Source: a virus (lineage: Duplodnaviria; Heunggongvirae; Uroviricota; Caudoviricetes). Taken from it: DNA of 10,785 nucleotides. The position numbers and the translations under genes are program-made. The notes beneath the pieces were generated by a model that was given only the letters and a program-made list of their open reading frames with translations, had not been told where the DNA came from and searched no databases. Location of the stretch: positions 1 to 10,785 of the IMG/VR virus record IMGVR_UViG_3300029647_000054. The stretch is one strand, 5' to 3'. Of this stretch, positions 1 to 10,785 are shown piece after piece. Positions within the stretch are counted from its first letter, which is position 1; each line of letters starts with the position of its first letter.

Positions 1-42
1 CAGTTGTTCAGGCTGGCGTGCGAATTGTAAACCAGAATGCCA

Positions 43-71
43 GGAAAAAACAAAACCCGCCGAAGCGGGTT
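43..71 (-). terminator. Rho-independent terminator at the 3' end of the hok transcript
   Basis: Inverted repeat 54-60 / 65-71 (AACCCGC / GCGGGTT) with 4-nt loop; on the minus strand the hairpin is followed by TTGTTTTTT (53-43); lies about 70 nt 3' of the hok stop. Confidence 0.55.
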
Positions 72-139
72 AAGTGCGGGTGCGTTGAGGATGCCTGACT
101 CATCAGAGGTGGCGAGGGATTTCTCCCTCGCCAGGTCTC

Positions 140-295
140 TTACTCCTCAGGTTCGTAAGCTGTGAAGACAGTGACCTCCGTCTGGCCGGTTCGGATTCGT
201 ACCTCGCAGAGGTCTTTCCTCGTTACCAGTGCCGTCACAATGACGGTAATACAGATGACGATCAGGGCGACTAACATCGCCTTTTGCTGCTTCAT
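140..295 (-). CDS. hok: Hok/Gef family type I toxin (51 aa, HokD/HokC-like small membrane toxin)
   Basis: In-frame internal ATG at 295 of the 70-aa track ORF; product MKQQKAMLVALIVICITVIVTALVTRKDLCEVRIRTGQTEVTVFTAYEPEE closely matches my recollection of HokD/HokC; SD AGGAG about 7 nt upstream; single TM helix. Confidence 0.85.
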   Translation of the reverse strand: MKQQKAMLVALIVICITVIVTALVTRKDLCEVRIRTGQTEVTVFTAYEPEE

Positions 296-352
296 AGCCT
301 GCTTCTCCTTGCCTTTCGGCGTGTAAGAGGCTAACCTACATGTGACTAGCAT
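140..352 (-). CDS. mok: Mok-like in-frame upstream reading frame that couples hok translation (70 aa)
   Basis: ATG at 352 in the same frame as hok, as recalled for chromosomal mokC/hokC pairs; existence as a separate regulatory frame is inferred from the hok/sok paradigm. Confidence 0.5.
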   Translation of the reverse strand: MLVTCRLASYTPKGKEKQAMKQQKAMLVALIVICITVIVTALVTRKDLCEVRIRTGQTEVTVFTAYEPEE

Positions 353-410
353 GAAATTGGCCTCAGATTAATGTTAAGCGTCCTGCAAGACGCATAATGT
401 TAACTGGGGC
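340..410 (+). ncRNA. sok: Putative Sok-like antisense RNA overlapping the mok start region (approximate)
   Basis: Inferred from hok/sok architecture only; candidate promoter TTGCCT (309-314) - 17 nt - TAACCT (332-337) on the plus strand; no clean terminator seen, ends not determined. Confidence 0.25.
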
Positions 411-510
411 TTTTCTCTGTCTGCCTTACGGTGGCATGCCCGAGGCAGACAGCCTCAAGCACCCGCAGCAATTCTACTTAACTCTCGCTTTACCGCAAAC
501 CGTTTTTACC

Positions 511-532
511 CGATATGGGAATTCCCATATCG
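511..532. repeat. Perfect 22-bp palindrome CGATATGGGAATTCCCATATCG
   Basis: Read directly: 11-nt arms exactly reverse-complementary with no spacer; not followed by a U-run on either strand. Confidence 0.8.
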
Positions 533-540
533 TAATGAAT

Positions 541-645
541 TCAGTTCCCTAGTCGATCCATCAAAAACACAACCAGGCAGTAAACACCCACAACAGCAAT
601 AACAGCCAGCGCACCTTCCATTGCCAGTGAGATATCATCCGACAC
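541..645 (-). CDS. Small hydrophobic peptide (34 aa, GTG start), single predicted TM helix
   Basis: Not in ORF track (too short). SD AAGGAGG 4 nt upstream of GTG at 645; product VSDDISLAMEGALAVIAVVGVYCLVVFLMDRLGN; start codon uncertain (alternative ATG at 621). Confidence 0.3.
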   Translation of the reverse strand: MSDDISLAMEGALAVIAVVGVYCLVVFLMDRLGN

Positions 646-680
646 ATTCCCTCCTTTGGTGTTAATCCCGGCGAACGCTT

Positions 681-764
681 TTACCCACACCGACAAATAA
701 CATATACTAAAAAAGCGATAGCCATAGCAACGCCTGTAATTGCAAATGCTTCAGGCCAGATCAT
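681..764 (-). CDS. Small hydrophobic peptide (27 aa), single predicted TM helix
   Basis: Not in ORF track. ATG at 764 overlaps the TGA of the upstream DUF551 gene (ATGA); strong SD GGAGG with 7-nt spacing; product MIWPEAFAITAVAMAIAFLVYVICRCG. Confidence 0.4.
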   Translation of the reverse strand: MIWPEAFAITGVAMAIAFLVYVICRCG

Positions 765-1438
765 TGGCGCACCTCCTGCGGCGGTTCTGGTAGCGGCATC
801 CAGTGGGTTACTTTCGATGCCGGTTCTTCCCCATCGTCAGTAACTGCCCACCATTTGTTTCTCGACCAATCGTAATACCCTTCGAAGGTATCGCACTCAG
901 TCCAGCCGTAAGACTTACCCCAACACCAAACATACTGTTTATCGTCCGGAATTCGCTCACTACAGCTTATCCAACCATCCGGAGTTACCGGAGAGCTGGT
1001 TGACGCTTCCGGGATTTTCCGAAAATTATTGGTTGACGAATCTTTATTTTCCCGAAAGTTTCCGGACTGAAGCATGGCTTCGCGGCAATCGTTCCAGCCT
1101 GTAGCGTATGCAGCCGCTTTGCTGCTGCCTTCAACTGGCGCATCCTGCCAATACATTTCTTCCGGCACTACCGGCGCTGGAGGGGCGGCGTAAATGCCCT
1201 CTATCACTAAATGTTTGCGCTCAAAATCATCTGGCTCTCGATGATATACGTAACTCCAATCACCAAGGTTATCATTGCGCCTGCAACGGAAACCTATCGG
1301 CTCTGCTTCCAGCGATGCCAGAGCAATTCGTGCCAGTTCTTCCGCTTCTTCTGCTGGCAGTACAACGTTGCTACCCGGTCCGTATGTTTCGCGCCACTGC
1401 TTGATTGTCAGCAGTCGCTCTTTGGTAATAGTGGTCAT
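761..1438 (-). CDS. DUF551 domain-containing phage protein (225 aa)
   Basis: C-terminal Trp-rich segment (DGWISCSERIPDDKQYVWCWGKSYGWTE...VTHWMPLPEPP) matches the DUF551 pattern I recall from E. coli prophage proteins; ATG start verified. Confidence 0.7.
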   Translation of the reverse strand: MTTITKERLLTIKQWRETYGPGSNVVLPAEEAEELARIALASLEAEPIGFRCRRNDNLGDWSYVYHREPDDFERKHLVIEGIYAAPPAPVVPEEMYWQDAPVEGSSKAAAYATGWNDCREAMLQSGNFRENKDSSTNNFRKIPEASTSSPVTPDGWISCSERIPDDKQYVWCWGKSYGWTECDTFEGYYDWSRNKWWAVTDDGEEPASKVTHWMPLPEPPQEVRQ

Positions 1439-1440
1439 AG

Positions 1441-1629
1441 CTATTTCACCTTAATCTCAACATTTCGCAGCTTTAGCTCTACTGGCAGGTCTGACTTTCC
1501 GGTTAATGCTAATGCGAGATTTTCTGGAGTAATGAGAGCAGTTATTGTTCTACCCATCGCAAGGCGGATAATCAGCCTTATCTCTTCGTCACAAGCGCCA
1601 GGGCGAATAATTGATATTTGTCCGTTCAC
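1441..1629 (-). CDS. Hypothetical small protein (62 aa, GTG start)
   Basis: GTG at 1629 one nt after the upstream TGA, preceded by SD AAAGGAGAG at 5-nt spacing; same geometry as the ATG at 2484. The track's ATG at 1671 would overlap the upstream gene by 41 nt and lacks an SD. Confidence 0.5.
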   Translation of the reverse strand: MNGQISIIRPGACDEEIRLIIRLAMGRTITALITPENLALALTGKSDLPVELKLRNVEIKVK

Positions 1630-1630
1630 C

Positions 1631-1663
1631 TCACTCTCCTTTAATGCGAATGCCAGCGGCGCG
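1631..1663. repeat. Module-junction repeat, copy 1 (about 33 bp, 31/33 identical to copy at 2486-2518)
   Basis: TCACTCTCCTTTAATGCGAATGCCAGCGGCGCG; encodes the shared C-terminal AGIRIKGE tail plus stop and the SD for the next gene. Confidence 0.8.
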
Positions 1664-2164
1664 GGAATCATTCCATCGCTTTACTTCTTCACGAATTACG
1701 TCAATGCATTCTTTCGAATCCATTAGGTAATCTTCATCAAAAAGACGTTCCTGTTCGTTTTCTATCGCAACAATGATTGCTTCAACTAACTTTTGTGCCT
1801 GAGAACCACTTTCTAACTCTGCAATGCGCTGTTTTACGGTATCAAGTTCAATCGATAATTTTTCCAACTGCTCTTTATGCTTCTTGTATTCCTGATATGC
1901 GTGCCAGGACTGACCTTTGCGCACACTATCAGTAATATCAGTAATCTGTTCTGGTGTTAGCGTAGTCAGTGGCTGTGCTGGGAAAATCAGCACTTTCCCG
2001 GAATCCCAATCAAAACCAGCGTGAATTGACTGAACCTCAACTGATGGTGTTGAACCGATGCGACCAGGCGAATGAACAACGATCGTTACATCCATATCTC
2101 GACGATGGCTGTGGTTGCTGGACAAAATACGATTCACCAACTCAGAAAATTTGGAAAATTTCAT
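1631..2164 (-). CDS. Hypothetical protein (177 aa) with coiled-coil C-terminus ending AGIRIKGE
   Basis: ATG at 2164 overlaps the upstream TGA (ATGA), SD AGAGGG at 7 nt; the track ORF's extra 43 N-terminal residues would overlap the upstream gene; last 8 residues identical to the Ea22-like protein. Confidence 0.6.
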
Positions 2165-2484
2165 GTTGATCCCTCTTTCTCTCCCCGGATAATTCTGTTG
2201 CACACATCCACACACTCGTCGCAGATGAAAACGGCGTCCCCAGCAATTAACTTTTTGACGGCGTACTGGGATTTGTTGCAGAAGCTGCAACAAAGTGTTC
2301 GCCTGACTGATAAGGATGGAGCGCCAGATGTCAGCCGCTCCATATCGTTCTTGCGACGCAATATCACACGGCTGAACTCAACCAGTTTCTCCGGGGATAT
2401 CTCCTCCTCCGTAGCGAGCGTCTCTAGTCGTTCGAGTATGTTGAAGGCTTTTTCCTGGGTAATAGCAGAATGCGATGTGGTCAT
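2161..2484 (-). CDS. Small protein with ClpX N-terminal zinc-binding-domain-like C4 zinc finger (107 aa)
   Basis: [38 protein letters not shown] aligns with ClpX N-terminus ([37 protein letters not shown], from memory) with identical CxxC-x18-CxxC spacing; ATG at 2484 with SD AAAGGAGAG. Confidence 0.75.
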
Positions 2485-2485
2485 C

Positions 2486-2518
2486 TCACTCTCCTTTGAT
2501 GCGAATGCCAGCGACGCG
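2486..2518. repeat. Module-junction repeat, copy 2
   Basis: TCACTCTCCTTTGATGCGAATGCCAGCGACGCG; same coding/SD content as copy 1. Confidence 0.8.
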
Positions 2519-3181
2519 TGGCACATTAACTTCCACGATGCGCACATTTGGTTTGTACATCTCAATCGCTGTCAGCCAGTCAGCGCCAGTCATGCGCTTT
2601 TCTGCATCGCCATTAGTCCACTTAACCGGTACACCAATAGCCTTCATCGCGATTTCTATTTCCCCGGCAATGGTGCTTTTTCCGCAACCAGTAAAACCAG
2701 ATACAACGACCAGAACTTCACCTTTGGCTGGTTTTATTTCCCGCGCTTCCAGTTCTGCTATGCGCTTACTTCCATCCGAGATAACACCTTCGTAATACTC
2801 ACGCTGCTCGTTGAGTTTTGATTTTGTCTCCTCAAGCTCAACGCGCAGCTTCCCTACCGTTAACGCAATATCCTCGTTCTCCTGGTCGCGGCGTTTGATG
2901 TATTGCTGGTTTCTTTCCCGTTCATCCAGCAGTGCCAAGACAGCAGTCGGATTGGCCTCTGCTATGAACTCAGCGTTTGCATAAGCCTGAGCATCTGTTT
3001 CAACCAGGCAGTTAACATGACATTCTGCAATCACGCCACCGGGTTCTCCTTTCCATTTTTGACAAACAAAAACTCCTGTTAAATTGCCGTGCTGGTTAAC
3101 AGATGTATGCCCTACGATGTAGCTTCCTTTAGTTGCTTTCTCTGCCTTTTCACGCAGTGCCTGATAGTTAATCTCGCTCAC
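2486..3181 (-). CDS. Ead/Ea22-like protein with C-terminal Walker A (P-loop) motif (231 aa, GTG start)
   Basis: N-terminal region with [20 protein letters not shown] motif typical of Ea22-like proteins as I recall them; central coiled coil; [10 protein letters not shown]-loop; GTG overlaps upstream TGA (GTGA) with SD GGAGGA at 6 nt. Confidence 0.7.
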
Positions 3182-3402
3182 TCTTCATCCTCCAAGTCGG
3201 CAACGGCGTCCATCACATCAGAACCGCGAATAACCTCAAAAGCACGGCAGGCCATTTGAAATACCAGTTGCTCTTGCGGGTGAGGAGACTCCCAATATTT
3301 GAAGCCTGGGCGATGCGTGTACCCCATCATTGAATAAAAATCACCAGCAAGCTTAATCGCGGCATCGACAAGCTCTCTGTTAGTCATTCTTTTTCCGCTC
3401 AC
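3178..3402 (-). CDS. Hypothetical small protein (74 aa, GTG start)
   Basis: GTG at 3402 overlaps the upstream TGA; SD AAGGAGG at 6 nt; no family recognised. Confidence 0.5.
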   Translation of the reverse strand: MSGKRMTNRELVDAAIKLAGDFYSMMGYTHRPGFKYWESPHPQEQLVFQMACRAFEVIRGSDVMDAVADLEDEE

Positions 3403-3749
3403 TGGTTGCCTCCTTTGCGAAGCTGGGCGGCTAACTCATCACATATGTGCGTCAAAGAACAAAGTTTGATTGATGGATGTTCGCGCATCATCTCTACCCC
3501 CTGCGCCCGCACTTCAGACAGGAAAGCATCGGTGGCTGGCATATTTCCTGTTGCCTTCATTGCCTCCAAAATAACCAGAACGCCATCTCGCCCAATCTCC
3601 TCGCAGATAACCTCGGTGCTGTCGCCAACAACATCGCAAAATGCCTGAACTGCTTTACGAGCCAGCGCATCTTCCGCCCTGTGAAACGCCTCGCGGTTGA
3701 AATTTTCATATCCCGTCATTGGACCGGCAATATAAACTCTGACCCTCAC
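3399..3749 (-). CDS. DUF4406-like (nucleoside 2-deoxyribosyltransferase-like fold) phage protein (116 aa, GTG start)
   Basis: N-terminal VYIAGPMTG motif characteristic of DUF4406 as I recall it; rest of protein did not match my memory of the family; GTG overlaps upstream TGA with SD AGGAGG at 7 nt. Confidence 0.55.
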   Translation of the reverse strand: MRVRVYIAGPMTGYENFNREAFHRAEDALARKAVQAFCDVVGDSTEVICEEIGRDGVLVILEAMKATGNMPATDAFLSEVRAQGVEMMREHPSIKLCSLTHICDELAAQLRKGGNQ

Positions 3750-4138
3750 TCCATCACCTCCTGAAAGTTTCCCCGATAGAACGCCAGCACACGCTGCATA
3801 ACTTCGCTCCTCCTGCTCTCACGACAAATTATGTTCTGCCGTCTGTTGTAACGACGTATTTCTCCGTCAGGTAACTTTCGAATCAGTGTCGGGTCAGCAG
3901 CCTTCTCCGGTGTCTTACGCCATACGCGATACGCCTGCTCTGATGGAAATACCCCGCAACCAGAGAGCCAGACATCACCACTGGCCGCAAGCGCACCAGA
4001 TAAACGACGAATAGCGGTCTTACTGACACCCGTTTTATCTGCCAGTTGTCGAAAAGTTTCTCGTCCGCTCAGGCGCACGAATTCCACAATGCGCGCCTTC
4101 ACTTCTTCCCGCTCTTCTGGTGTAAATACTTTTGCCAT
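3746..4138 (-). CDS. Putative HTH DNA-binding protein (130 aa)
   Basis: ATG at 4138 with SD GGAGG at 5 nt (track start at 4153 is TTG); helix-turn-helix-like segment FRQLADKTGVSKTAIRRLSG. Confidence 0.6.
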   Translation of the reverse strand: MAKVFTPEEREEVKARIVEFVRLSGRETFRQLADKTGVSKTAIRRLSGALAASGDVWLSGCGVFPSEQAYRVWRKTPEKAADPTLIRKLPDGEIRRYNRRQNIICRESRRSEVMQRVLAFYRGNFQEVME

Positions 4139-4153
4139 AAGCGCCTCCGGCAA

Positions 4154-4879
4154 TCACTTTTCCGATACAACACGGCGGGAAGAATCAGTAATCTGTCGAA
4201 CAATATCCCGGTGCTTGTTCAGCTCCCGCAGCGCGGCGCAGACTCGCTCCCACTTCTGAACCTGACCTTTTGCCCGGCGCAGCTCGCGGTTAGCCACATG
4301 CAGCGATGGTAAAATCAGACCATCCGGATGTTTTCTGGTGAACGACGGCTGTGACTGCACTGTGACCGCCACACTTTCCGTTTTTATTTCTTCCTGTGTT
4401 TCTGCTTCCCGGACAGGTAACGCAACACCTGCTGGCTGAGGAAAGGCTTTACCGTCGGTTTCCGCTACGGATGCAGCTTCCGGCTCTGCCGGTAAATCAG
4501 CGCCCGGTATGCAGTAACGAAATTTACCGCCCTGATTCACGCGAATCAGACGCCCTTTGCTGATTGCCATGGCCAGCGATGAATTCGCCCGGCGGGAGGT
4601 AATCCCGAACATCAGTGCCAGCTCATCCGCCGTTTGTGGGCCATGTTGTTCAATCGCCTCAGTCAGCATTTGCGCTGTCACTTTCGGTACCGGTGACACC
4701 GGTTCACTTTCACCAGCCTGAATCAGCCGCCACATCGAACCCTTGTTATCCGCTTCACCGCGGCGCTTCAGTTTCCACAGTTCGTTGACCGCATCTTCAC
4801 GGCTGATTCCAAGGCGGGACGCCACTACCTGTGAAGAGGCTCTTTTCAGTGCTTTCAGTGCGTCAAATACGGTTTCCAT
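4154..4879 (-). CDS. Hypothetical phage protein with two winged-helix-like segments (241 aa)
   Basis: ATG at 4879 with SD GGAGG at 8-nt spacing (track start at 4897 is TTG and contains that SD); two internal segments resembling winged-helix DNA-binding folds. Confidence 0.65.
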
Positions 4880-4912
4880 TAAAATTTCCTCCGACAAAAT
4901 CGTTTCTCAGAT

Positions 4913-5575
4913 TCAAATAAAACCAGCTGCCTTCCGGCGTTCGTATTCCTGTTTCAGCCGTTCAATTGGCGTTGGCCCTTGCGGGTGTTTCGCCCCTTCC
5001 AGTTGTCGTCGCACTGGCGGAACACTCATCCCGTTACCAACATGCTTTGCCCATTTCGTCAGTTGCCGTTCCGCAAGTCGTTTTAACTCACCCTGCGTCA
5101 TCTGGCGCTCAATCCCTCTGGTACGCATTTCGAGGCAGATGTGGTACAGCACAGGCTGTGGCCACGGGTATTTATCACTCCCGTCGTATCGCCAGGATTC
5201 ATTGCGCCAGCGCCGGTACTCTTCCATCACGGCATCCACCGTAAGACCAAATGGATTTGCCCCACTCTCCGAAATCAGCGCAACAAACTCAGCCAGGTCC
5301 GGGGGCCACGTTTCACCCGCCCGGCAGCGGTCCATGCACTGACGGCAGACCAGCCGGATTTGCTGTTCAGTCATCGTGCCAATCTGGGCAATCCAGAGCT
5401 TCGAAGGTGCGGCCCCGTTCTTCTGAGTCCAGCGGTTCGAATACACCTCCCCCATAAGCTCCCACAGCTTCCAGGCCATTTCCGTTGCTGATAAATCCGT
5501 TGTCTCGTTCCCACTGTTCGCGTGCTGCCCGGATTTCCTGAACTGCCCGTGATGCCGTGCCACCTGATGCTGCAT
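4913..5575 (-). CDS. Replication protein P-like (lambda P family helicase loader), up to 220 aa
   Basis: Similarity to lambda P as recalled (W-x-A...TMxEQ, FxP-P--F-A, YPW motifs); ATG at 5575 has SD AAGGGGG at 6 nt; start uncertain (alternatives 5479, 5455); overlaps O-like frame. Confidence 0.7.
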   Translation of the reverse strand: MQHQVARHHGQFRKSGQHANSGNETTDLSATEMAWKLWELMGEVYSNRWTQKNGAAPSKLWIAQIGTMTEQQIRLVCRQCMDRCRAGETWPPDLAEFVALISESGANPFGLTVDAVMEEYRRWRNESWRYDGSDKYPWPQPVLYHICLEMRTRGIERQMTQGELKRLAERQLTKWAKHVGNGMSVPPVRRQLEGAKHPQGPTPIERLKQEYERRKAAGFI

Positions 5576-6404
5576 GGCTTACCCCCTTGCTGACTGGTTT
5601 TACCTGTGTCCTGACGTGCTGCACGTGGCGGGCAAATTTCTGCTCCCACTGAACCTGTGTGAAAACCTTCCCCTCCGCCATCCAGTAATCCCGGAATGCG
5701 GCAAGCTCTGCAGGTGTAAATTCCGGCTCAGGCAGAGCCATACCCCACACTGCTGCCCGTTGTCGAAAATCCGACGACGGCTGCCAGACAGTAGTCATCG
5801 AAAATTTCCCGATCGGTTCGCTCAGGCCGTCCAGGTATTCAGGTTCGGCTGTCTGCAACGGCGCACCATGCGACTCACCGGTTGGAGCACTCTCGCGCAT
5901 GCGCGCGTTATGTGTGGGGTTTAATTCTGTATCTGTATCTTTATCTGTCGTGACTTGTCGTGACAGATGCGTGACACGTCGTGACTCATCGTGACAATCA
6001 GCATCATATTTCCGCAGCTTTTCGCGCTCCCGCTGCGCTCTCTTGCGCTCTGCCGGGGATTTTGCCGTTTGCGAAACGTTACCATTGTCCTCTTTCAGCA
6101 CCTGACGTTTTTCCCATCCGGAAATAAGGTCACCATCCAGAACCCGCCCCTGCATTGCATGCAAAATTGAATCAATTACGTCTTCCGTCACATCAAGCGC
6201 ACTTGCTAAATCTTCCGTCGTGACATCAATGTGACCACGTAGTGACACGCCGTGACATGTCGTGACATTTCGTGACGCACTCACCAGAAGGTGGATATAC
6301 ACCGCCATCACTGTTGCGATTGGCTGTCCTGAGACCCTGGCAATGGTTCGCCATTTGGGATCATTTGGCATGTCATGCCACAATCTGAGCCAGGCATTAG
6401 CCAT
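5367..6404 (-). CDS. Replication initiator / replisome organizer (lambda O-like) with internal iterons (345 aa)
   Basis: N-terminus MANAWLRLWHDMPNDPKWR resembles phage replisome-organizer N-domains; iteron clusters inside the coding region; ATG at 6404 with SD GAGG at 5 nt (track start 6410 is GTG). Confidence 0.75.
   Translation of the reverse strand: MANAWLRLWHDMPNDPKWRTIARVSGQPIATVMAVYIHLLVSASRNVTTCHGVSLRGHIDVTTEDLASALDVTEDVIDSILHAMQGRVLDGDLISGWEKRQVLKEDNGNVSQTAKSPAERKRAQREREKLRKYDADCHDESRRVTHLSRQVTTDKDTDTELNPTHNARMRESAPTGESHGAPLQTAEPEYLDGLSEPIGKFSMTTVWQPSSDFRQRAAVWGMALPEPEFTPAELAAFRDYWMAEGKVFTQVQWEQKFARHVQHVRTQVKPVSKGVSHAASGGTASRAVQEIRAAREQWERDNGFISNGNGLEAVGAYGGGVFEPLDSEERGRTFEALDCPDWHDD
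5948..5995. repeat. Iteron cluster 1: five direct repeats of (T/G)CGTGAC at 10-11 bp spacing, preceded by a 6-bp periodic (TATCTG-like) tract
   Basis: CGTGAC at 5949, 5959, 5970, 5980, 5990; adjacent tract 5924-5947; read directly. Confidence 0.7.
6220..6276. repeat. Iteron cluster 2: six direct repeats of GTGAC at 10-11 bp spacing
   Basis: GTGAC at 6220, 6231, 6242, 6252, 6262, 6272; read directly; about 270 bp from cluster 1, both inside the O-like gene. Confidence 0.7.
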
Positions 6405-6472
6405 ACTCACCTCATCTGATACCGAACTTTACCCTCGAACATCCGGAAGAAATCCGGCATGAATATTGTTGG

Positions 6473-6898
6473 TCAATGCACGACAACAGCATTACCAGGC
6501 TGACCACCACTGTTAGTCAGGGTGCCCCAGGCGATCGCCGCTGCGACAAAATCATCCACATCTTTCACCAGCCGATCCCTCCGTTCGACGATCTCACGGT
6601 AATATTCAGAGCTGTGACTGCGCATACGGGCCACCAGCAAAGGCGGCATCGCCTTTTCGATCGCCGGTAACAGAGCCTGCATTTTTTCAACAGCATCAGG
6701 GGTGTCTTTATCCAGCCAACGGAAAATTTTCTGGGTATTACGGGCCAGGGCTTCCGGATGGCTGTCGTCATACAGTTCCGGGAACGTCATTCCCAGCTCG
6801 AAATACGCTTTGGTAATTTTCGCAGCCGGTACTTTTTCGCCGTCCGGATGCGCCCAGACATTCATCGCCATGCGGATGTGTTCATGCTTGATTTTCAT
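6473..6898 (-). CDS. YdaT-like protein in the cII position (141 aa)
   Basis: Starts MKIKHEHI and ends VVVH as I recall for Rac YdaT; ATG overlaps the Cro-like gene's TGA (ATGA); family assignment from memory only. Confidence 0.55.
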   Translation of the reverse strand: MKIKHEHIRMAMNVWAHPDGEKVPAAKITKAYFELGMTFPELYDDSHPEALARNTQKIFRWLDKDTPDAVEKMQALLPAIEKAMPPLLVARMRSHSSEYYREIVERRDRLVKDVDDFVAAAIAWGTLTNSGGQPGNAVVVH

Positions 6899-7158
6899 GA
6901 ATCAACTCCCAGCGCGGGTTGTGTGTTAGCCTGATAGTCAACAGGTATGCCATCGGTTGGGTTGGGGTAAGTACTGCTATCAATCTCGTGCGGGGTCACT
7001 ACCCACCCTGTTGCTTCACACCAGCGTAAAACTTTCCCCCCCGTAAGTTTCGCCCGTCCAGTAATAACATGGCTTACCATCCCTTGGGTTACCCCAACAA
7101 TTTCAGCAAAATCTTTCTGGGTTATACGGGAATGATGCAAATATTCTCCAAGATTCAT
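6895..7158 (-). CDS. Cro-like HTH transcriptional regulator (YdaS/Cro family, 87 aa)
   Basis: HTH segment QKDFAEIVGVTQGMVSHVITG; divergent from the CI-like repressor across an operator-containing intergenic region; SD GAGGTG 4 nt before ATG. Confidence 0.75.
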   Translation of the reverse strand: MNLGEYLHHSRITQKDFAEIVGVTQGMVSHVITGRAKLTGGKVLRWCEATGWVVTPHEIDSSTYPNPTDGIPVDYQANTQPALGVDS

Positions 7159-7188
7159 TGTTCACCTCATGTTATGTGACCATGAATA

Positions 7189-7230
7189 TTAATAGCATTG
7201 TTATTTTTAAAAGTAAATAGCACTGCTATT
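7189..7230. promoter_or_regulatory. OR-like region: two 15-bp palindromic operators plus a PR-like promoter for the Cro-like gene
   Basis: Operators AATAGCATTGTTATT (7191-7205) and AATAGCACTGCTATT (7216-7230); on the minus strand TTTACT (-35, 7217-7212), 17-nt spacer, TATTAA (-10, 7194-7189). Confidence 0.65.
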
Positions 7231-7265
7231 TCAAAGAGATTAATAATCTTATTAGAATTGAAGGT

Positions 7266-7766
7266 ATGAAAAGAAAACCCCTGTCAGAGATCGACCTGCA
7301 AGCCGCCCAGAGACTGAAAGAAATCTGGACGACGAAAAAAACTCAACTTGGGTTAACCCAAGAGCGTGCGGCAGAAATTCTGGGTTTTTCGACACAAGGG
7401 GCAGTAAGCCATTATCTAAATGGTCAGACACCTTTAAATCTAGAGGCTGTTATCAAGTTCGCTGGGTTGCTACAAGTTCCGCCTGAGTCAATTAGACCAG
7501 ATATGGCAGACTTGTTACGAATTGTAAGGATGTACCCCCAAGAACTGCAGCAGGATAATGTTGTCGCTTTACCCGCAGAGATGGAACAATCGGAAAACGA
7601 ACTTCCGTTTAATATAGAACCTATAGAGCGAGATTTGATCCAGACGTTCAGGGCTTTCCCAAAAGAAGACAAAGAGAAAATGCTTAAGGAAATGAAGGAG
7701 AAAAAAGAATCAATTGAAGAAACCGTTGCGCGGTGGCTAGAGGCGCAAAAAGGTCTTCGCGCCTAA
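7266..7766 (+). CDS. paaR: CI-like HTH repressor, regulator of the three-component TA module (PaaR-like, 166 aa); no S24 peptidase domain
   Basis: N-terminal HTH (LGLTQERAAEILGFSTQGAVSHYLNG); divergent from Cro-like gene; directly upstream of antitoxin-toxin pair; C-terminus too short and lacks a LexA-like autocleavage domain. Confidence 0.75.
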   Translation: MKRKPLSEIDLQAAQRLKEIWTTKKTQLGLTQERAAEILGFSTQGAVSHYLNGQTPLNLEAVIKFAGLLQVPPESIRPDMADLLRIVRMYPQELQQDNVVALPAEMEQSENELPFNIEPIERDLIQTFRAFPKEDKEKMLKEMKEKKESIEETVARWLEAQKGLRA

Positions 7767-7783
7767 TCTGAGGAGGTTAGAAC

Positions 7784-7975
7784 ATGAGTACAGTCCTTTC
7801 CCCGATAATTTCAGAATTTGAAACAATCGAACAAGAAAACAGCTATAACGAATGGTTACGCACCAAAGTGGCAGCAAGCCTCGCAGACCCCCGTCCTGCA
7901 ATTCCGCATGACGAAGTAATGGCTGAAATGGAAAACCTTATTGCGCAAATAGCTTCGACGAACAGGAGTGAGTAA
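7784..7975 (+). CDS. paaA: PaaA-like antitoxin (63 aa)
   Basis: 63-aa acidic protein immediately upstream of and overlapping (TAATG) the ParE toxin gene; matches my recollection of the PaaA2 antitoxin from E. coli O157 paaR2-paaA2-parE2; SD GAGGAGG at 8 nt. Confidence 0.7.
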   Translation: MSTVLSPIISEFETIEQENSYNEWLRTKVAASLADPRPAIPHDEVMAEMENLIAQIASTNRSE

Positions 7976-8265
7976 TGCTGCCCATTTTATGGCTACCTTC
8001 TGCGCGTGATGATTTGCGTCAGATCGTAGCCTATATTGCCAAGGAAAACCCTCCCGCTGCACGTAGACTAAAAATACGCATTGAAACATCAGTTTTGTCA
8101 CTTACTGAACACCCTTACCTGTATCCACCAAGCGAAAGAGCCCTAGGCCTTCGTGAGATAGTGACCCATCCTAACTACATAATACTTTACCGAGTAACAG
8201 CATCTAACATCGAGATCGTAAATGTAGTTCACTCACGAAGGCAGTATCCAAACAAAAGCTGTTAA
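7975..8265 (+). CDS. parE: ParE/RelE-superfamily toxin (ParE-like, 96 aa)
   Basis: Typical ParE sequence features (LPILWLPSARDDLRQIVAYI...EHPYLYPPSE...REIV); start overlaps antitoxin stop by 1 nt. Confidence 0.8.
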   Translation: MLPILWLPSARDDLRQIVAYIAKENPPAARRLKIRIETSVLSLTEHPYLYPPSERALGLREIVTHPNYIILYRVTASNIEIVNVVHSRRQYPNKSC

Positions 8266-8280
8266 TCATTCCTACCAACA

Positions 8281-8304
8281 ACCACCTTCGGGTGGTTTTT
8301 TTTT
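8281..8304 (+). terminator. Rho-independent terminator after parE
   Basis: ACCACC-TTCG-GGTGGT hairpin followed by a run of nine T. Confidence 0.8.
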
Positions 8305-8320
8305 CTTACCTCCAAAAAAC

Positions 8321-8362
8321 AATAGCATTACTATTTACAGAATAAAATAGCAGTGCTATTGT
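8321..8362 (+). promoter_or_regulatory. OL-like region: two 15-bp palindromic operators plus a PL-like promoter driving the dicB-type operon
   Basis: Operators AATAGCATTACTATT (8321-8335) and AATAGCAGTGCTATT (8346-8360); TTTACA (-35, 8334-8339), 17-nt spacer, TATTGT (-10, 8357-8362); mirrors the OR architecture. Confidence 0.65.
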
Positions 8363-8538
8363 TTATTCATCACCCACCCTCCCCACAGAATGCAGGGCAA
8401 TACTTCGAGTTACCCGGCAGTGGTCAGGGGTTAAGTAGCCAGCCCGAGGCGTATGAACATGACGGCGGGAACACTTTGTATAACAGCGCAGCAGGTTTTT
8501 GTTCCGCTACCCCGGCGTTAAGGGGAAATGAGGTCAGC

Positions 8539-8691
8539 ATGGATACTATCGAGCTTGGCAACAGCGAATCTCTGGTATGCGGCGTGTTTCCCAACCAGGA
8601 CGGCACGTTTACCGCGATGACGTATACCAGAAGCAAAACGTTTAAAACGGAAGCTGGCGCGCGTCGCTGGTTAGCAAGAAGCTCTGACTGA
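8539..8691 (+). CDS. Small protein (50 aa), first gene of the PL-type operon; possibly YdfA/YdaF (DUF1391)-like
   Basis: ATG with SD GAGG at 5 nt; in frame with the track ORF whose GTG start lies inside the operator; family assignment is positional only. Confidence 0.4.
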   Translation: MDTIELGNSESLVCGVFPNQDGTFTAMTYTRSKTFKTEAGARRWLARSSD

Positions 8692-8789
8692 TGAAGGTTA
8701 GTAATTAAAGAGTTCTCCACAGGCGAAGTGGAATACGTTCGCAGGACACGGGTAAGCATTCGGCATGCTCTTTAACAATCTGGGTATTC

Positions 8790-9236
8790 CTAACCACAAA
8801 GGAATCGCATCAATTTGGATTTTGCAGACAGTTTCTCTTGTTGTTCTACGGAGATTCCTATTTTGATCTGGGTTTTTAAGATTGCGATATCTTTAAGCGA
8901 CGACCAAATATTATCATCTGTTTTTTCCAGGAGCTTTAACTGCATTTTCAATTCCGAATCGGAATATTTTTCTGCATCATCATAAAGCTGCAGATATTCT
9001 GCGGATTTTCTCATTGCGTTACCTGACTTTTGTCCGAATCCGTAAATCGTTTGAACGGTTGCTATCACAACAATGAGAACTCCAGAAACTTCAGGAATAA
9101 ATCCACCAATGACAGATGAACCGAGGATAATACTCACCACTGAGAAAAGTTTATCGAGACGACCAGTCGCTACAGAGAATAGTTGTTCAAGAAAATAACC
9201 ATATAAAACCCTGTCAAGAATATCATCCCGGTCCAT
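8790..9236 (-). CDS. AT-rich two-TM membrane protein with coiled-coil-like C-terminus (148 aa); candidate superinfection-exclusion (sieB-position) protein
   Basis: Opposite strand to the surrounding operon; SD AGGTG at 8 nt; hydrophobic segments LFSVVSIILGSSVIGGFI and VLIVVIATVQTIYGF; clearly lower GC than neighbours; function inferred from position. Confidence 0.55.
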   Translation of the reverse strand: MDRDDILDRVLYGYFLEQLFSVATGRLDKLFSVVSIILGSSVIGGFIPEVSGVLIVVIATVQTIYGFGQKSGNAMRKSAEYLQLYDDAEKYSDSELKMQLKLLEKTDDNIWSSLKDIAILKTQIKIGISVEQQEKLSAKSKLMRFLCG

Positions 9237-9295
9237 ATATCATCACCTGCTTGTTTGATTGTTGCTGTTCCCCCTCTCCTCTGAAGGAGCTGGAG

Positions 9296-9484
9296 ATGGT
9301 TTTGGTCGAATGTTTTTCTCAGGTATATGTTTCCTGGTATTCGGAATGTCCGCCCTGTCCGCAGGCTTACCAGTACCTGAACAATTCTTTTGAACCACCA
9401 TATAAAACACCTTCCTGTTGTTGGGGATATCCAGATTATACAGATTTCCTGTTATTGGGGAATGACGGAAACCACCTCGCCTGA
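9296..9484 (+). CDS. Small Cys-rich protein (62 aa), hypothetical
   Basis: ATG with SD GAAGGAG at 6 nt; six Cys including CPPCP and SCCW; preferred over the overlapping low-complexity minus-strand ORF. Confidence 0.4.
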   Translation: MVLVECFSQVYVSWYSECPPCPQAYQYLNNSFEPPYKTPSCCWGYPDYTDFLLLGNDGNHLA

Positions 9485-9699
9485 CGTGGTTAAAAGCAGG
9501 CACACAACACGAAAGCGCACGGCGAGATTCCTTTGCATATAAGGCTTGTCGTTAAATTTCTTCGACCGTGCACTTCCGGTTGTGGCAGTCCGCGAAATGG
9601 CGCGGCGGTAAGTATGGCTGGGGCTTCCTCCATTGCTCCAGAAAATGCACCGGGTCGTCAGGTTGACCATACGCTTAAGTGACAGCCCCGCCACAATAC

Positions 9700-9757
9700 C
9701 CATGTGTAGTATTTGGTGGCATCAGTTCTACTCCGTGACTGCTCTGCCACCCTTTTT
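9700..9757 (+). ncRNA. dicF: DicF-like small RNA (ftsZ-targeting sRNA family) with intrinsic terminator
   Basis: TTTGGTGGCATCAGTTCTACTCCGTGACTGCTCTGCCACCCTTTTT closely matches my recollection of K-12 DicF, with compensatory stem changes; sits directly upstream of dicB as in Qin. Confidence 0.7.
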
Positions 9758-9761
9758 AAAG

Positions 9762-9922
9762 TGAATTTTGTGATGCGGTGAATGCGGCTATGCGCACGCG
9801 GAACAGTTAAAACCGTAAAGTGGTCTTTTACGGGGCGTAACGGGCATCCTTCTGTATTCCGGCGTTAATTGTTAACTGGTTAACGTCACCTGGAGGCACC
9901 AGGCACCGCATCACAAAATTCA
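9762..9922 (+). repeat. Long-range 19-nt perfect inverted repeat (TGAATTTTGTGATGCGGTG at 9762-9780 and its reverse complement at 9904-9922) bracketing 123 nt between dicF and dicB
   Basis: Read directly; would form a 19-bp RNA duplex in the operon transcript. Confidence 0.7.
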
Positions 9923-9939
9923 TTGTTGAGGACGCGATA

Positions 9940-10128
9940 ATGGAAACGTTATTACCAAACGTTAATACGTCTGAAGGTTGTTTTGATATTGGTGTTCTGC
10001 TCAGTAACCGGGAGTTTACGGAAGATGCCATTAAGATGAGAAAATATGAACCTTATCTTCTCAATGATAATTCCATACTTTCCAGAATTGCCCTTCTTGA
10101 ACTTGGTATTATCGGAGAACAGCAGTGA
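9940..10128 (+). CDS. dicB: Cell division inhibitor DicB (62 aa)
   Basis: N-terminal 35 residues (METLLPNVNTSEGCFDIGV...FTEDAI) closely match K-12 DicB as recalled; C-terminus diverges; SD GAGGA at 7 nt. Confidence 0.85.
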   Translation: METLLPNVNTSEGCFDIGVLLSNREFTEDAIKMRKYEPYLLNDNSILSRIALLELGIIGEQQ

Positions 10129-10313
10129 CTTCAGCATTTGCACTGGTGATGACCGTTTTTCTTATAACGGGTGAGCCACAAAATGTGATTACCGGAATTT
10201 ATGACAGTAAGTCATCCTGCATTCAGGTAAGGGACGAACAAAAAATCCCCGGTGAATGCCTCCCGTTAAAAAAAGTATCGCTGAACCTGAATAACGAAAT
10301 ACCGGCTGGATAA
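10125..10313 (+). CDS. ydfD: YdfD-like small membrane/lysis protein (62 aa, GTG start)
   Basis: GTG overlaps the dicB stop (GTGA), SD GGAGAA at 5 nt; N-terminal hydrophobic helix; assignment by position in the dicB operon and size. Confidence 0.5.
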   Translation: MTSAFALVMTVFLITGEPQNVITGIYDSKSSCIQVRDEQKIPGECLPLKKVSLNLNNEIPAG

Positions 10314-10408
10314 CCCGCCAGCCATATTAACACCATACCAACGGATTAAAAATGCCAGCAATGGCAGGGATTCGTTCACCCTGAAATCTGTAATGAGGTT
10401 AAAACAAA

Positions 10409-10785
10409 ATGAGTAAAGTCTTTATTTGCGCCGCTATTCCTGACGAACTGGCAACAAGGGAAGAAGGCGCTGTGGCTGTAGCCACAGCCATTGAAGCTGG
10501 CGACGAACGCCGTGCTCGAGCAAAATTTCACTGGCAATTCCTGGAACATTATCCGGCTGCTCAGGACTGCGCTTATAAATTTATTGTCTGCGAGGATAAA
10601 CCCGGCATACCCCGCCCTGCCCTCGATTCATGGGATGCTGAATATATGCAGGAAAACCGCTGGGATGAGGAGTCTGCTTCCTTTGCCCCGGTTGAGACTG
10701 AATCAGATCCGATGAACGTCACTTTTGACAAGCTGGCCCCTGAAGTACAGAACGCTGTCATGGTTAAGTTCGACACATGTGAAAA
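10409..10785 (+). CDS. Partial CDS (runs off the window end, at least 125 aa), YdfE-position hypothetical protein
   Basis: ATG at 10409 with SD GAGG; open frame to the window end; not in the track because no stop is reached. Confidence 0.55.
   Translation, partial: MSKVFICAAIPDELATREEGAVAVATAIEAGDERRARAKFHWQFLEHYPAAQDCAYKFIVCEDKPGIPRPALDSWDAEYMQENRWDEESASFAPVETESDPMNVTFDKLAPEVQNAVMVKFDTCE

Follow-up and report, generated by a model that had tools for sequence, protein, structure and literature searches.

The DNA stretch analysed here, termed the window, comprises 10,785 nucleotides (positions 1 to 10,785) of the IMG/VR virus record IMGVR_UViG_3300029647_000054 (Caudoviricetes). It carries two small open reading frames (ORFs), termed sORF-A and sORF-B, which lie in tandem between a DUF551-domain gene and a hok locus. 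Both small ORFs, the DUF551 gene and the hok features are all on the minus strand, as read from the sequence and from the list of ORFs. The favoured explanation, held with somewhat better than even confidence, is that these are two independent, genuine small genes, each encoding a minimal single-pass inner-membrane peptide that probably modulates a larger membrane protein. That both are genuine coding genes is by itself very probable. A membrane-modulator mode of action is put forward tentatively, as a prospect a little short of even.

Reading frames and translation signals

The DUF551-domain gene (761–1438, minus strand) is in the ORF list and encodes a protein of 225 aa that matches Pfam PF04448 (E=2.2e-16). 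Its TGA stop codon at 763–761 is overlapped by the ATG of sORF-A at 764–762, which results in the sequence ATGA. A Shine–Dalgarno sequence, GGAGG (772–776, minus strand), lies inside the DUF551 coding sequence at the codons for PQEV, and is separated from the ATG by a 7-nt spacer (TGCGCCA). sORF-A extends from 764 to 681 on the minus strand and encodes the 27-aa peptide MIWPEAFAITGVAMAIAFLVYVICRCG, a putative single-pass membrane peptide at the end of the operon. A 35-nt spacer (646–680) separates the sORF-A stop from the start of sORF-B. The latter (645 to 541, minus strand) has the Shine–Dalgarno sequence AAGGAGG at 650–656 (minus strand), 4 nt before a GTG start, and encodes 34 aa, (V/M)SDDISLAMEGALAVIAVVGVYCLVVFLMDRLGN, again a putative single-pass membrane peptide; this form is termed B1. 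The sequence agrees with the initial annotation on the two lengths, the ATGA overlap, the ribosome-binding site inside the upstream coding sequence, and the AAGGAGG and GTG of the second frame. That annotation also described both ORFs as missed by the ORF track. This is correct for the track in question, but sORF-B is already present in RefSeq as a hypothetical protein (WP_001278450, WP_001278459 and WP_001278460), and is ECs_5710 in prophage Sp6 of Escherichia coli O157:H7 Sakai.

The exact sORF-B protein is found on approximately 1000 contigs. Twelve of the 13 B1 haplotypes have an ATG start, and the GTG (645–643) is that of the window lineage, with eight sampled loci. The frame of sORF-B is fixed by the fact that relatives have ATG where the window has GTG. 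The B1 haplotypes all keep the Shine–Dalgarno sequence, save for a single A to G change in L004 and L005. An overlapping ORF in an alternative frame, with an ATG start (561–647, 28 aa), was ruled out; relatives that have ATG in place of the sORF-B GTG have lost the start of this ORF. In the Sakai genome (NC_002695.2), the ATG of sORF-A is at 1550843 and that of sORF-B at 1550962.

Ribosome occupancy had been proposed as a check, and for sORF-B it has been published. In Hücker et al. (2017) the ORF appears as XECs145, in the form of a longer 54-codon frame, and is shown to be strongly translated in an uninduced Sakai culture (PMC5597208). In LB, XECs145 has a transcriptome value of 79 and a translatome value of 346 reads per kilobase per million mapped reads (RPKM), a ribosome coverage value (RCV, translatome over transcriptome reads) of 4.35 and an ORF coverage of 0.99. 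The corresponding values for the BHI control are 121 RPKM, 150 RPKM, 1.14 and 0.84 (PMC5597208, S2 Table). The same authors predict an inner-membrane protein with one transmembrane helix (PMC5597208, S8 Table). The 51/54-aa form was judged to be a gene-caller extension on the basis of the Shine–Dalgarno sequence 4 nt before the internal ATG/GTG, the RefSeq annotation and the existence of a 29-aa relative, termed B2 and described below. A phmmer search with sORF-B of 1.84 billion representative proteins yielded seven matches, each at least 79% identical. Neither of the two peptides is listed in the EDL933 translatome supplements or in the Pro-SMP finder supplement. Thus sORF-B is not new: it has been annotated and its translation has been published.

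The evidence for sORF-A comes from its evolution. The sequences collected comprise 14 DNA haplotypes and no fewer than 10 variants of the protein, and the length is 27 codons in all sampled lineages except one, which has an in-frame deletion of two codons (25 aa). The consensus is M-x-W-P-E-A-F-x3-G-x9-Y-x-I-C-R-W-G, where M1, W3, P4, E/D5, A6, G11, Y/F21, R25 and W26 are invariant or nearly so. The clades differ at 21–31 of 81 nt. Synonymous divergence (dS) is saturated and nonsynonymous divergence (dN) is 0.17–0.33, with dN/dS of 0.12–0.57 between clades. Variable columns are distributed 12/9/22 over the three codon positions, i.e. they are skewed to the third, and both other frames are interrupted by stop codons. 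The comparison of clades shows sORF-A to be under clear purifying selection, as far as substitution patterns indicate. The junction with the upstream gene, GGAGGTG(AATC/CGCC)AATGA, is also closely similar in most lineages. The window departs from the family consensus ...ICRWG by a W26C change (TGG to TGT, 686–684), a minority state found in seven sampled loci. The prediction that the frames would be conserved in related prophages is therefore borne out for both ORFs.

It is highly improbable that the two ORFs arose by chance in a spacer that does not code for protein. They are very short, as chance frames would be, and sORF-A is missing from most automated annotations. To set against this are the conservation of the frames across diverged clades and the published ribosome occupancy of sORF-B, for which chance origin is effectively refuted already. 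In addition, first-order Markov resampling of the region was carried out, in which the ORFs counted were those of 25 codons or more with a start codon, a Shine–Dalgarno sequence and a hydrophobic stretch; only 0.08% of 5000 resamplings yielded even one such ORF.

Genomic contexts of sORF-A

sORF-A is unannotated in the phage and RefSeq records inspected. A few GenBank submitters have called it, e.g. as a ‘putative prophage protein’ in E. coli 042, and some gene callers give it a length of 45 aa. The 45-aa form was rejected as a gene-caller extension: the added part reads the region of the conserved DUF551 C-terminus in an alternative frame, and it is lost where the upstream gene differs. As the extension is not kept with other upstream genes, the 27-aa form represents the common core.

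The exact sORF-A peptide of the window has no match in a collection of 15 billion proteins. The family was found by tblastn in 92 phage records, including 933W, VT2-Sakai, Min27 and BP-4795, and in 181 plasmids. The plasmids are mostly IncY P1-like phage-plasmids of approximately 95 kb from E. coli and Salmonella, with one from Klebsiella. IMG/VR contains 565 sORF-A relatives. When one genome per species was scanned, the sORF-A pattern was confined to E. coli and Shigella, barring two further matches: a 431-bp contig in a Xanthomonas assembly, which probably represents contamination, and a weak match of 48% identity in an uncultured metagenome-assembled genome. The CPS-53 prophage of E. coli K-12 (yfdS region) has no sORF-A.

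Both sides of sORF-A vary. Four different C-termini are found upstream, those of DUF551 and of 933W L0139, together with ...SVEDVLR and ...TQGENQ; in the P1-like plasmids sORF-A comes after ‘eaa’. Downstream there may be hok, sORF-B, DUF4222-xis-int, an intrinsic terminator or a convergent gene. In BP-4795 and Stx2a_WGPS2, sORF-A is followed by DUF4222-xis-int and hok is absent. The IncY plasmids also lack hok, and there the next gene starts 4 nt past sORF-A. From this variety of contexts, sORF-A appears as a small portable cistron of enterobacterial temperate phages, and it attaches to the end of strings of accessory genes via a stop/start overlap. sORF-A would thus be the portable last cistron of the early accessory-gene operon of these phages. 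The most likely mode of translation is reinitiation at the ATGA by ribosomes that have just finished the upstream gene, with the help of the embedded Shine–Dalgarno sequence.

Two closer associations were considered and rejected. sORF-A is not an obligate partner of DUF551: among 116 randomly sampled DUF551 3′ ends from IMG/VR, only five are followed by a member of the sORF-A family, compared with 73 followed by a longer coupled gene and seven by other short hydrophobic ORFs, and upstream genes other than DUF551 also occur. Nor is sORF-A part of the hok module, in view of the hok-free loci of BP-4795, WGPS2 and the IncY phage-plasmids.

A different view is that sORF-A is useful only by being translated, either as ribosome cover that counters Rho-dependent polarity or as a recombination linker, and that the peptide itself is without function. 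The position of sORF-A, which is always the last or nearly the last cistron and is ATGA-coupled, is as expected from this. The same can be said of the junction, which is common to unrelated upstream genes, much as linkers join the modules of mosaic lambdoid phages. Moreover, one E. coli lineage has a strong intrinsic terminator immediately after sORF-A. However, the amino acids are conserved (WPEAF, G11 and (C/F)RW(G)) while synonymous sites are saturated, and the length is fixed at 27 codons. The persistence of sORF-A in the IncY plasmids, where another gene follows so closely, also argues that it is not a mere spacer at the end of an operon. A function in translation alone is therefore considered unlikely, and a functional peptide remains the preferred interpretation of sORF-A.

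The record of phage 933W (AF125520; locus L009, 1034–1504) merits a comment. The annotated start of L0139 falls in an alternative frame of the C-terminus of the DUF551 protein (L0140), and L0139 probably starts instead at the ATG that is coupled to the stop of L0140. An unannotated sORF-A is found downstream of L0139.

sORF-B, its relative B2 and the hok module

The initial annotation placed the two ORFs next to a hok locus, and this is confirmed. The hok mRNA leader and the sok antisense region are at 290–464 on the minus strand (Rfam RF01794, 117.6 bits, E=6.8e-27). The mok/hok reading frame in the ORF list is at 140–352 (minus strand), with the 51-aa Hok coding sequence (CDS) at 140–295, and an intrinsic terminator is located downstream at 54–71. 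The Hok protein matches NCBIfam Hok with E=1.9e-12, which is under the curated cut-off, and its relatives are annotated hokD. The hok promoter (471–498, minus strand) consists of TTGCGG, a 16-nt spacer and TAGAAT, and is conserved in all aligned loci; since the Rfam model begins at 464, transcription is taken to start at about G464. The stop codon of B1 is approximately 74 nt upstream of this start.

In the window, B1 is part of a 175-nt block that consists of the Shine–Dalgarno sequence, sORF-B and a palindrome, and this block is bracketed by imperfect direct repeats of 19 nt. The left copy, GGGTAAAAGCGTTCGCCGG (668–686, minus strand), covers the last codon and the stop of sORF-A. The right copy, GGGTAAAAACGGTTTGCGG (493–511, minus strand), contains the hok −35 sequence TTGCGG (493–498). 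The two copies are exactly 175 nt apart, which is the size of the indel that distinguishes loci with sORF-B1 from those without it, where sORF-A abuts the hok promoter. This suggests that the cassette may have been gained or lost by recombination at the short direct repeat.

A perfect 22-nt palindrome, CGATATGGGAATTCCCATATCG (511–532), lies after the stop of sORF-B and before the hok −35 sequence, and contains an EcoRI site. The palindrome is a feature of B1 loci and is absent from B2 loci; in L004, L005, L030 and L079 it has one mismatch or has lost 1 nt. It forms a hairpin in the minimum-free-energy structure of the RNA. Without a U-run it does not qualify as a canonical terminator, and it may serve as a binding site for a protein or as a hairpin at the 3′ end of an RNA. 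Both the palindrome and the gapped direct repeats were read directly from the sequence, and were not reported by an automated repeat search.

The relative B2, MLVLKCALAITAVMAIYCLAIVLMDRLSD, is a 29-aa peptide of mEp460-like phages that was found by tblastn; IMG/VR contains 374 B2 relatives. It is 52% identical to B1, has a GTG start and the Shine–Dalgarno sequence AGGAGG, and occupies the equivalent position upstream of hok. The motif ALA.I.AV...YCL...LMDRL of sORF-B is retained in B2. Between B1 and B2 dN/dS is ~0.42, and within each type polymorphism is mostly at third codon positions. The hok leader follows B2 in 79 of 80 loci, where the B2 stop is at a fixed distance of 42 nt from the hok +1. 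The sampled B1 loci also carry hok, except for a few in which the 400 nt examined contain no hok motif. B2 lies together with hok in a block that has a sharp left edge at TCGCTCAAAGCGGACTAGA, approximately 220 nt upstream of B2. Within this block is a promoter-like element, TTGAA(T/G)-N17-CATATT, about 37–66 nt before the B2 start (L094, L100–L179). Its hexamers are conserved while the spacer has diverged, the pattern expected of a functional promoter. The B2 variant would thus have a promoter-like element of its own.

A sample of 114 prophage hok loci was surveyed and classified by strict pattern. Twelve loci have sORF-A with B1, 12 have B2 only, two have sORF-A with B2 and 23 have sORF-A only. 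The remaining 65 have neither by strict pattern, although approximately 12 of these contain variant or internally deleted copies of B. Some form of sORF-B is therefore present in about 26–38 of the 114 loci. Identical Hok protein and leader sequences are found with B1, with B2, with sORF-A only, or with neither ORF. It should also be pointed out that the hokW-sokW locus of Sp5/933W, which functions as a toxin–antitoxin pair in Sp5 (PMC8621323), has no sORF-B. Thus sORF-B belongs to the hok module, and hok does not need sORF-B. Prophage hok/sok cassettes may be viewed as having an optional extension, of which sORF-B is the leftmost element. In contrast to the initial annotation, which treated the two ORFs as a pair, sORF-A and sORF-B belong to different mobile modules, the first with the 3′ end of the accessory operon and the second with hok. 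Their sequences are also unrelated, as comparison with hhalign gave a probability of 2%.

The association raises the question of whether sORF-B is a working third part of hok/sok. It might act as a modulator or buffer of Hok, or transcription of sORF-B might read through the hok promoter and collide with that of sok, and so tune the hok:sok ratio. Several observations are in keeping with this. Wherever checked, hok follows sORF-B, bar the few loci mentioned above; B2 and hok form one sharply bounded block; no terminator was found between sORF-B and the hok promoter; and other hok loci carry different small hydrophobic ORFs at the equivalent position. Yet most surveyed hok loci do without sORF-B, hokW-sokW works without it, and B is internally deleted in seven loci where hok is intact. 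A working role in hok/sok is consequently regarded as improbable. The same low standing is given to a composite proposal, in which prophage hok/sok exists in a three-part form with a separately promoted sORF-B, and sORF-A is a widespread but overlooked early gene of Shiga-toxin (Stx) phages and P1-like phage-plasmids with a host membrane target of its own.

Upstream of prophage hok, several unrelated kinds of small membrane ORF are found repeatedly. In 16 of the 114 loci (L184, L214 and relatives), a different hydrophobic ORF of 60 aa with two predicted helices, MKNALQFLFVAFWLF...CIEYWR, ends approximately 90 nt before the hok +1.

Membrane character, possible roles and prophage setting

Each peptide consists of essentially one hydrophobic helix, as the initial annotation had stated. 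The best 17-residue Kyte–Doolittle windows score 2.48 for sORF-A and 2.95 for sORF-B. Each has a single predicted transmembrane helix within 50 aa or less and appears to be genuinely translated, as judged from RIBOseq for sORF-B and from evolution for sORF-A. Neither sORF matches an entry in Pfam, PHROGs, NCBIfam or PADLOC, other than sub-threshold matches of a compositional kind. No match was obtained with the Hok/Gef profile (PF01848 and NCBIfam Hok), and there is no Rfam family over 541–764 at E<=1.

The sORF-A peptide has a short acidic N-terminus (conserved WPEAF), a hydrophobic span of approximately 18 residues and a C-terminal tip that contains arginine (CRWG). The span is bracketed by Trp3 and Trp26 (Cys26 in the window), and the distance of 23 residues between these two positions fits two membrane interfaces. 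In both peptides the N-terminus is acidic and an Arg lies close to the C-terminus, a pattern from which an N-out/C-in orientation is predicted. According to the mechanism proposed, both would insert in the inner membrane and bind a larger host or phage membrane protein, rather than act as pore-forming toxins or holins.

In this respect the two peptides resemble AcrZ, MgtS/YneM, MgtR, KdpF, PmrR and CydX, which are also 20–50 aa in length with one helix and tiny tails, have ordinary Shine–Dalgarno sequences and have often been left unannotated. These modulators constitute a functional class and not a homology family. The sORFs differ from AcrZ/MgtS/KdpF-like modulators in that they are prophage-borne and have no sequence relationship to them, and in that sORF-A would be produced by stop/start coupling. 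A sub-threshold NCBIfam similarity between one sORF-A variant and KdpF (E=0.024) reflects composition only.

The initial annotation also suggested toxin-like or holin-like functions, and these are disfavoured. TisB, DinQ, ShoB, Zor and Ldr peptides are similar in size and hydrophobicity to both sORF peptides, which is a point in favour of one or both being type I-like membrane toxins or holin/antiholin-like lysis factors. With lengths of 27 and 34 aa, the peptides are indeed small and hydrophobic, as type I toxins such as Hok/Gef, TisB, DinQ, ShoB, ZorO and Ldr are. The sORFs adjoin Hok, with sORF-B the neighbour of hok/sok, and their Kyte–Doolittle profiles are comparable to that of the Hok transmembrane segment. 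However, translation is not kept off as in type I toxins. Both ORFs have strong Shine–Dalgarno sequences (GGAGG and AAGGAGG), and the RCV of sORF-B in LB, found in healthy growing Sakai with nearly full coverage, is hard to square with a potent toxin. Nor was an antisense RNA, a fold-back-inhibited mRNA or homology to type I toxins detected, and both peptides lack the periplasmic Cys-containing domain of Hok.

Signals on the opposite strand were also considered. No Rfam antitoxin RNA, plus-strand terminator or conserved opposite-strand promoter was found. The sole promoter-like site on that strand, TTTACC-17-TATACT at 680–708 (plus strand), runs antisense to the first half of sORF-A. Other sORF-A clades do not conserve this site, which is thus probably a chance match.

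With respect to holins, the location is that of the early nin/ea region upstream of Q and not of the lysis cassette: in relatives the two genes come after Ea22/DUF551 accessory genes and upstream of hok-rem-DUF968-Q. There is no charged C-terminal domain, the tails being RCG/RWG (3 aa) and DRLGN (5 aa), and no dual-start motif. A toxin or lysis function is therefore held to be quite unlikely for either peptide, and the membrane regulator reading, which had been the third suggestion of the initial annotation, is the best guess for both, to judge from their sequences.

Phage morons and small membrane proteins expressed in lysogens, such as HK97 gp15 and lambda Bor/Lom, provide a further comparison. 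B1 is transcribed and efficiently translated in uninduced Sakai, and so behaves like a moron, i.e. an independently expressed prophage accessory gene. As with morons, sORF-B may be independently promoted, as the promoter-like element of B2 suggests, and it is expressed in the lysogen according to the Sakai data; it is much smaller than the proteins named. XECs145/ECs_5710/WP_001278450 is sORF-B itself (34/34 aa), and only the start codon differs, ATG there and GTG in the window.

Several points weigh against the favoured explanation. Support for the translation of sORF-A is evolutionary, and the RIBOseq study of Sakai left out ORFs of <30 aa, hence the size class of sORF-A (PMC5597208). The dN/dS estimates are based on only 27–34 codons; roughly 3,500 copies were found in E. 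coli genomes. In the window lineage, the loss of Trp26 and the GTG start of sORF-B may reflect relaxed selection. No convincing canonical sigma-70 promoter was found upstream of sORF-B in the window, either by promoter search or by manual inspection. Finally, the internal deletions of sORF-B in seven of the 114 hok loci show that it is dispensable.

On balance, the findings represent a solid annotation result of modest novelty. They do not describe a new kind of system and do not overturn current understanding. sORF-A is the more novel of the two, a conserved and essentially unannotated small single-pass membrane protein. Its carriers include Shiga-toxin phages of medical importance (933W, VT2-Sakai, BP-4795 and O104:H4-type relatives) and IncY phage-plasmids, yet nearly all annotations lack it. 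The addition of sORF-A and the confirmation of the 34-aa form of sORF-B correct phage gene catalogues, and provide two candidates for studies of small membrane proteins. The one-way link, whereby sORF-B is almost never found without hok and hok is often found without sORF-B, raises the question of accessory parts in prophage type I toxin–antitoxin cassettes.

The PDB contains no solved structure of a homologue of the neighbouring DUF551 protein, which therefore gives no functional lead. Genes for DUF1627, DUF977, DUF4406 and Ead/Ea22 lie further upstream in the window, which resembles the rightward early operon of a lambdoid prophage of the Qin/Sp6 type. Just past hok, an isrK-like match at 50–131 (minus strand) overlaps the terminator at 54–71, with 27.8 bits compared with a gathering score of 50. 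The small RNA DicF is found at 9701–9752 (plus strand) with 62 bits, which exceeds the gathering score. It is followed by an STnc100-like match at 9750–9972 (plus strand; 36.8 bits, under the gathering score of 47), and together these two mark the prophage as Qin/Sp6-like.

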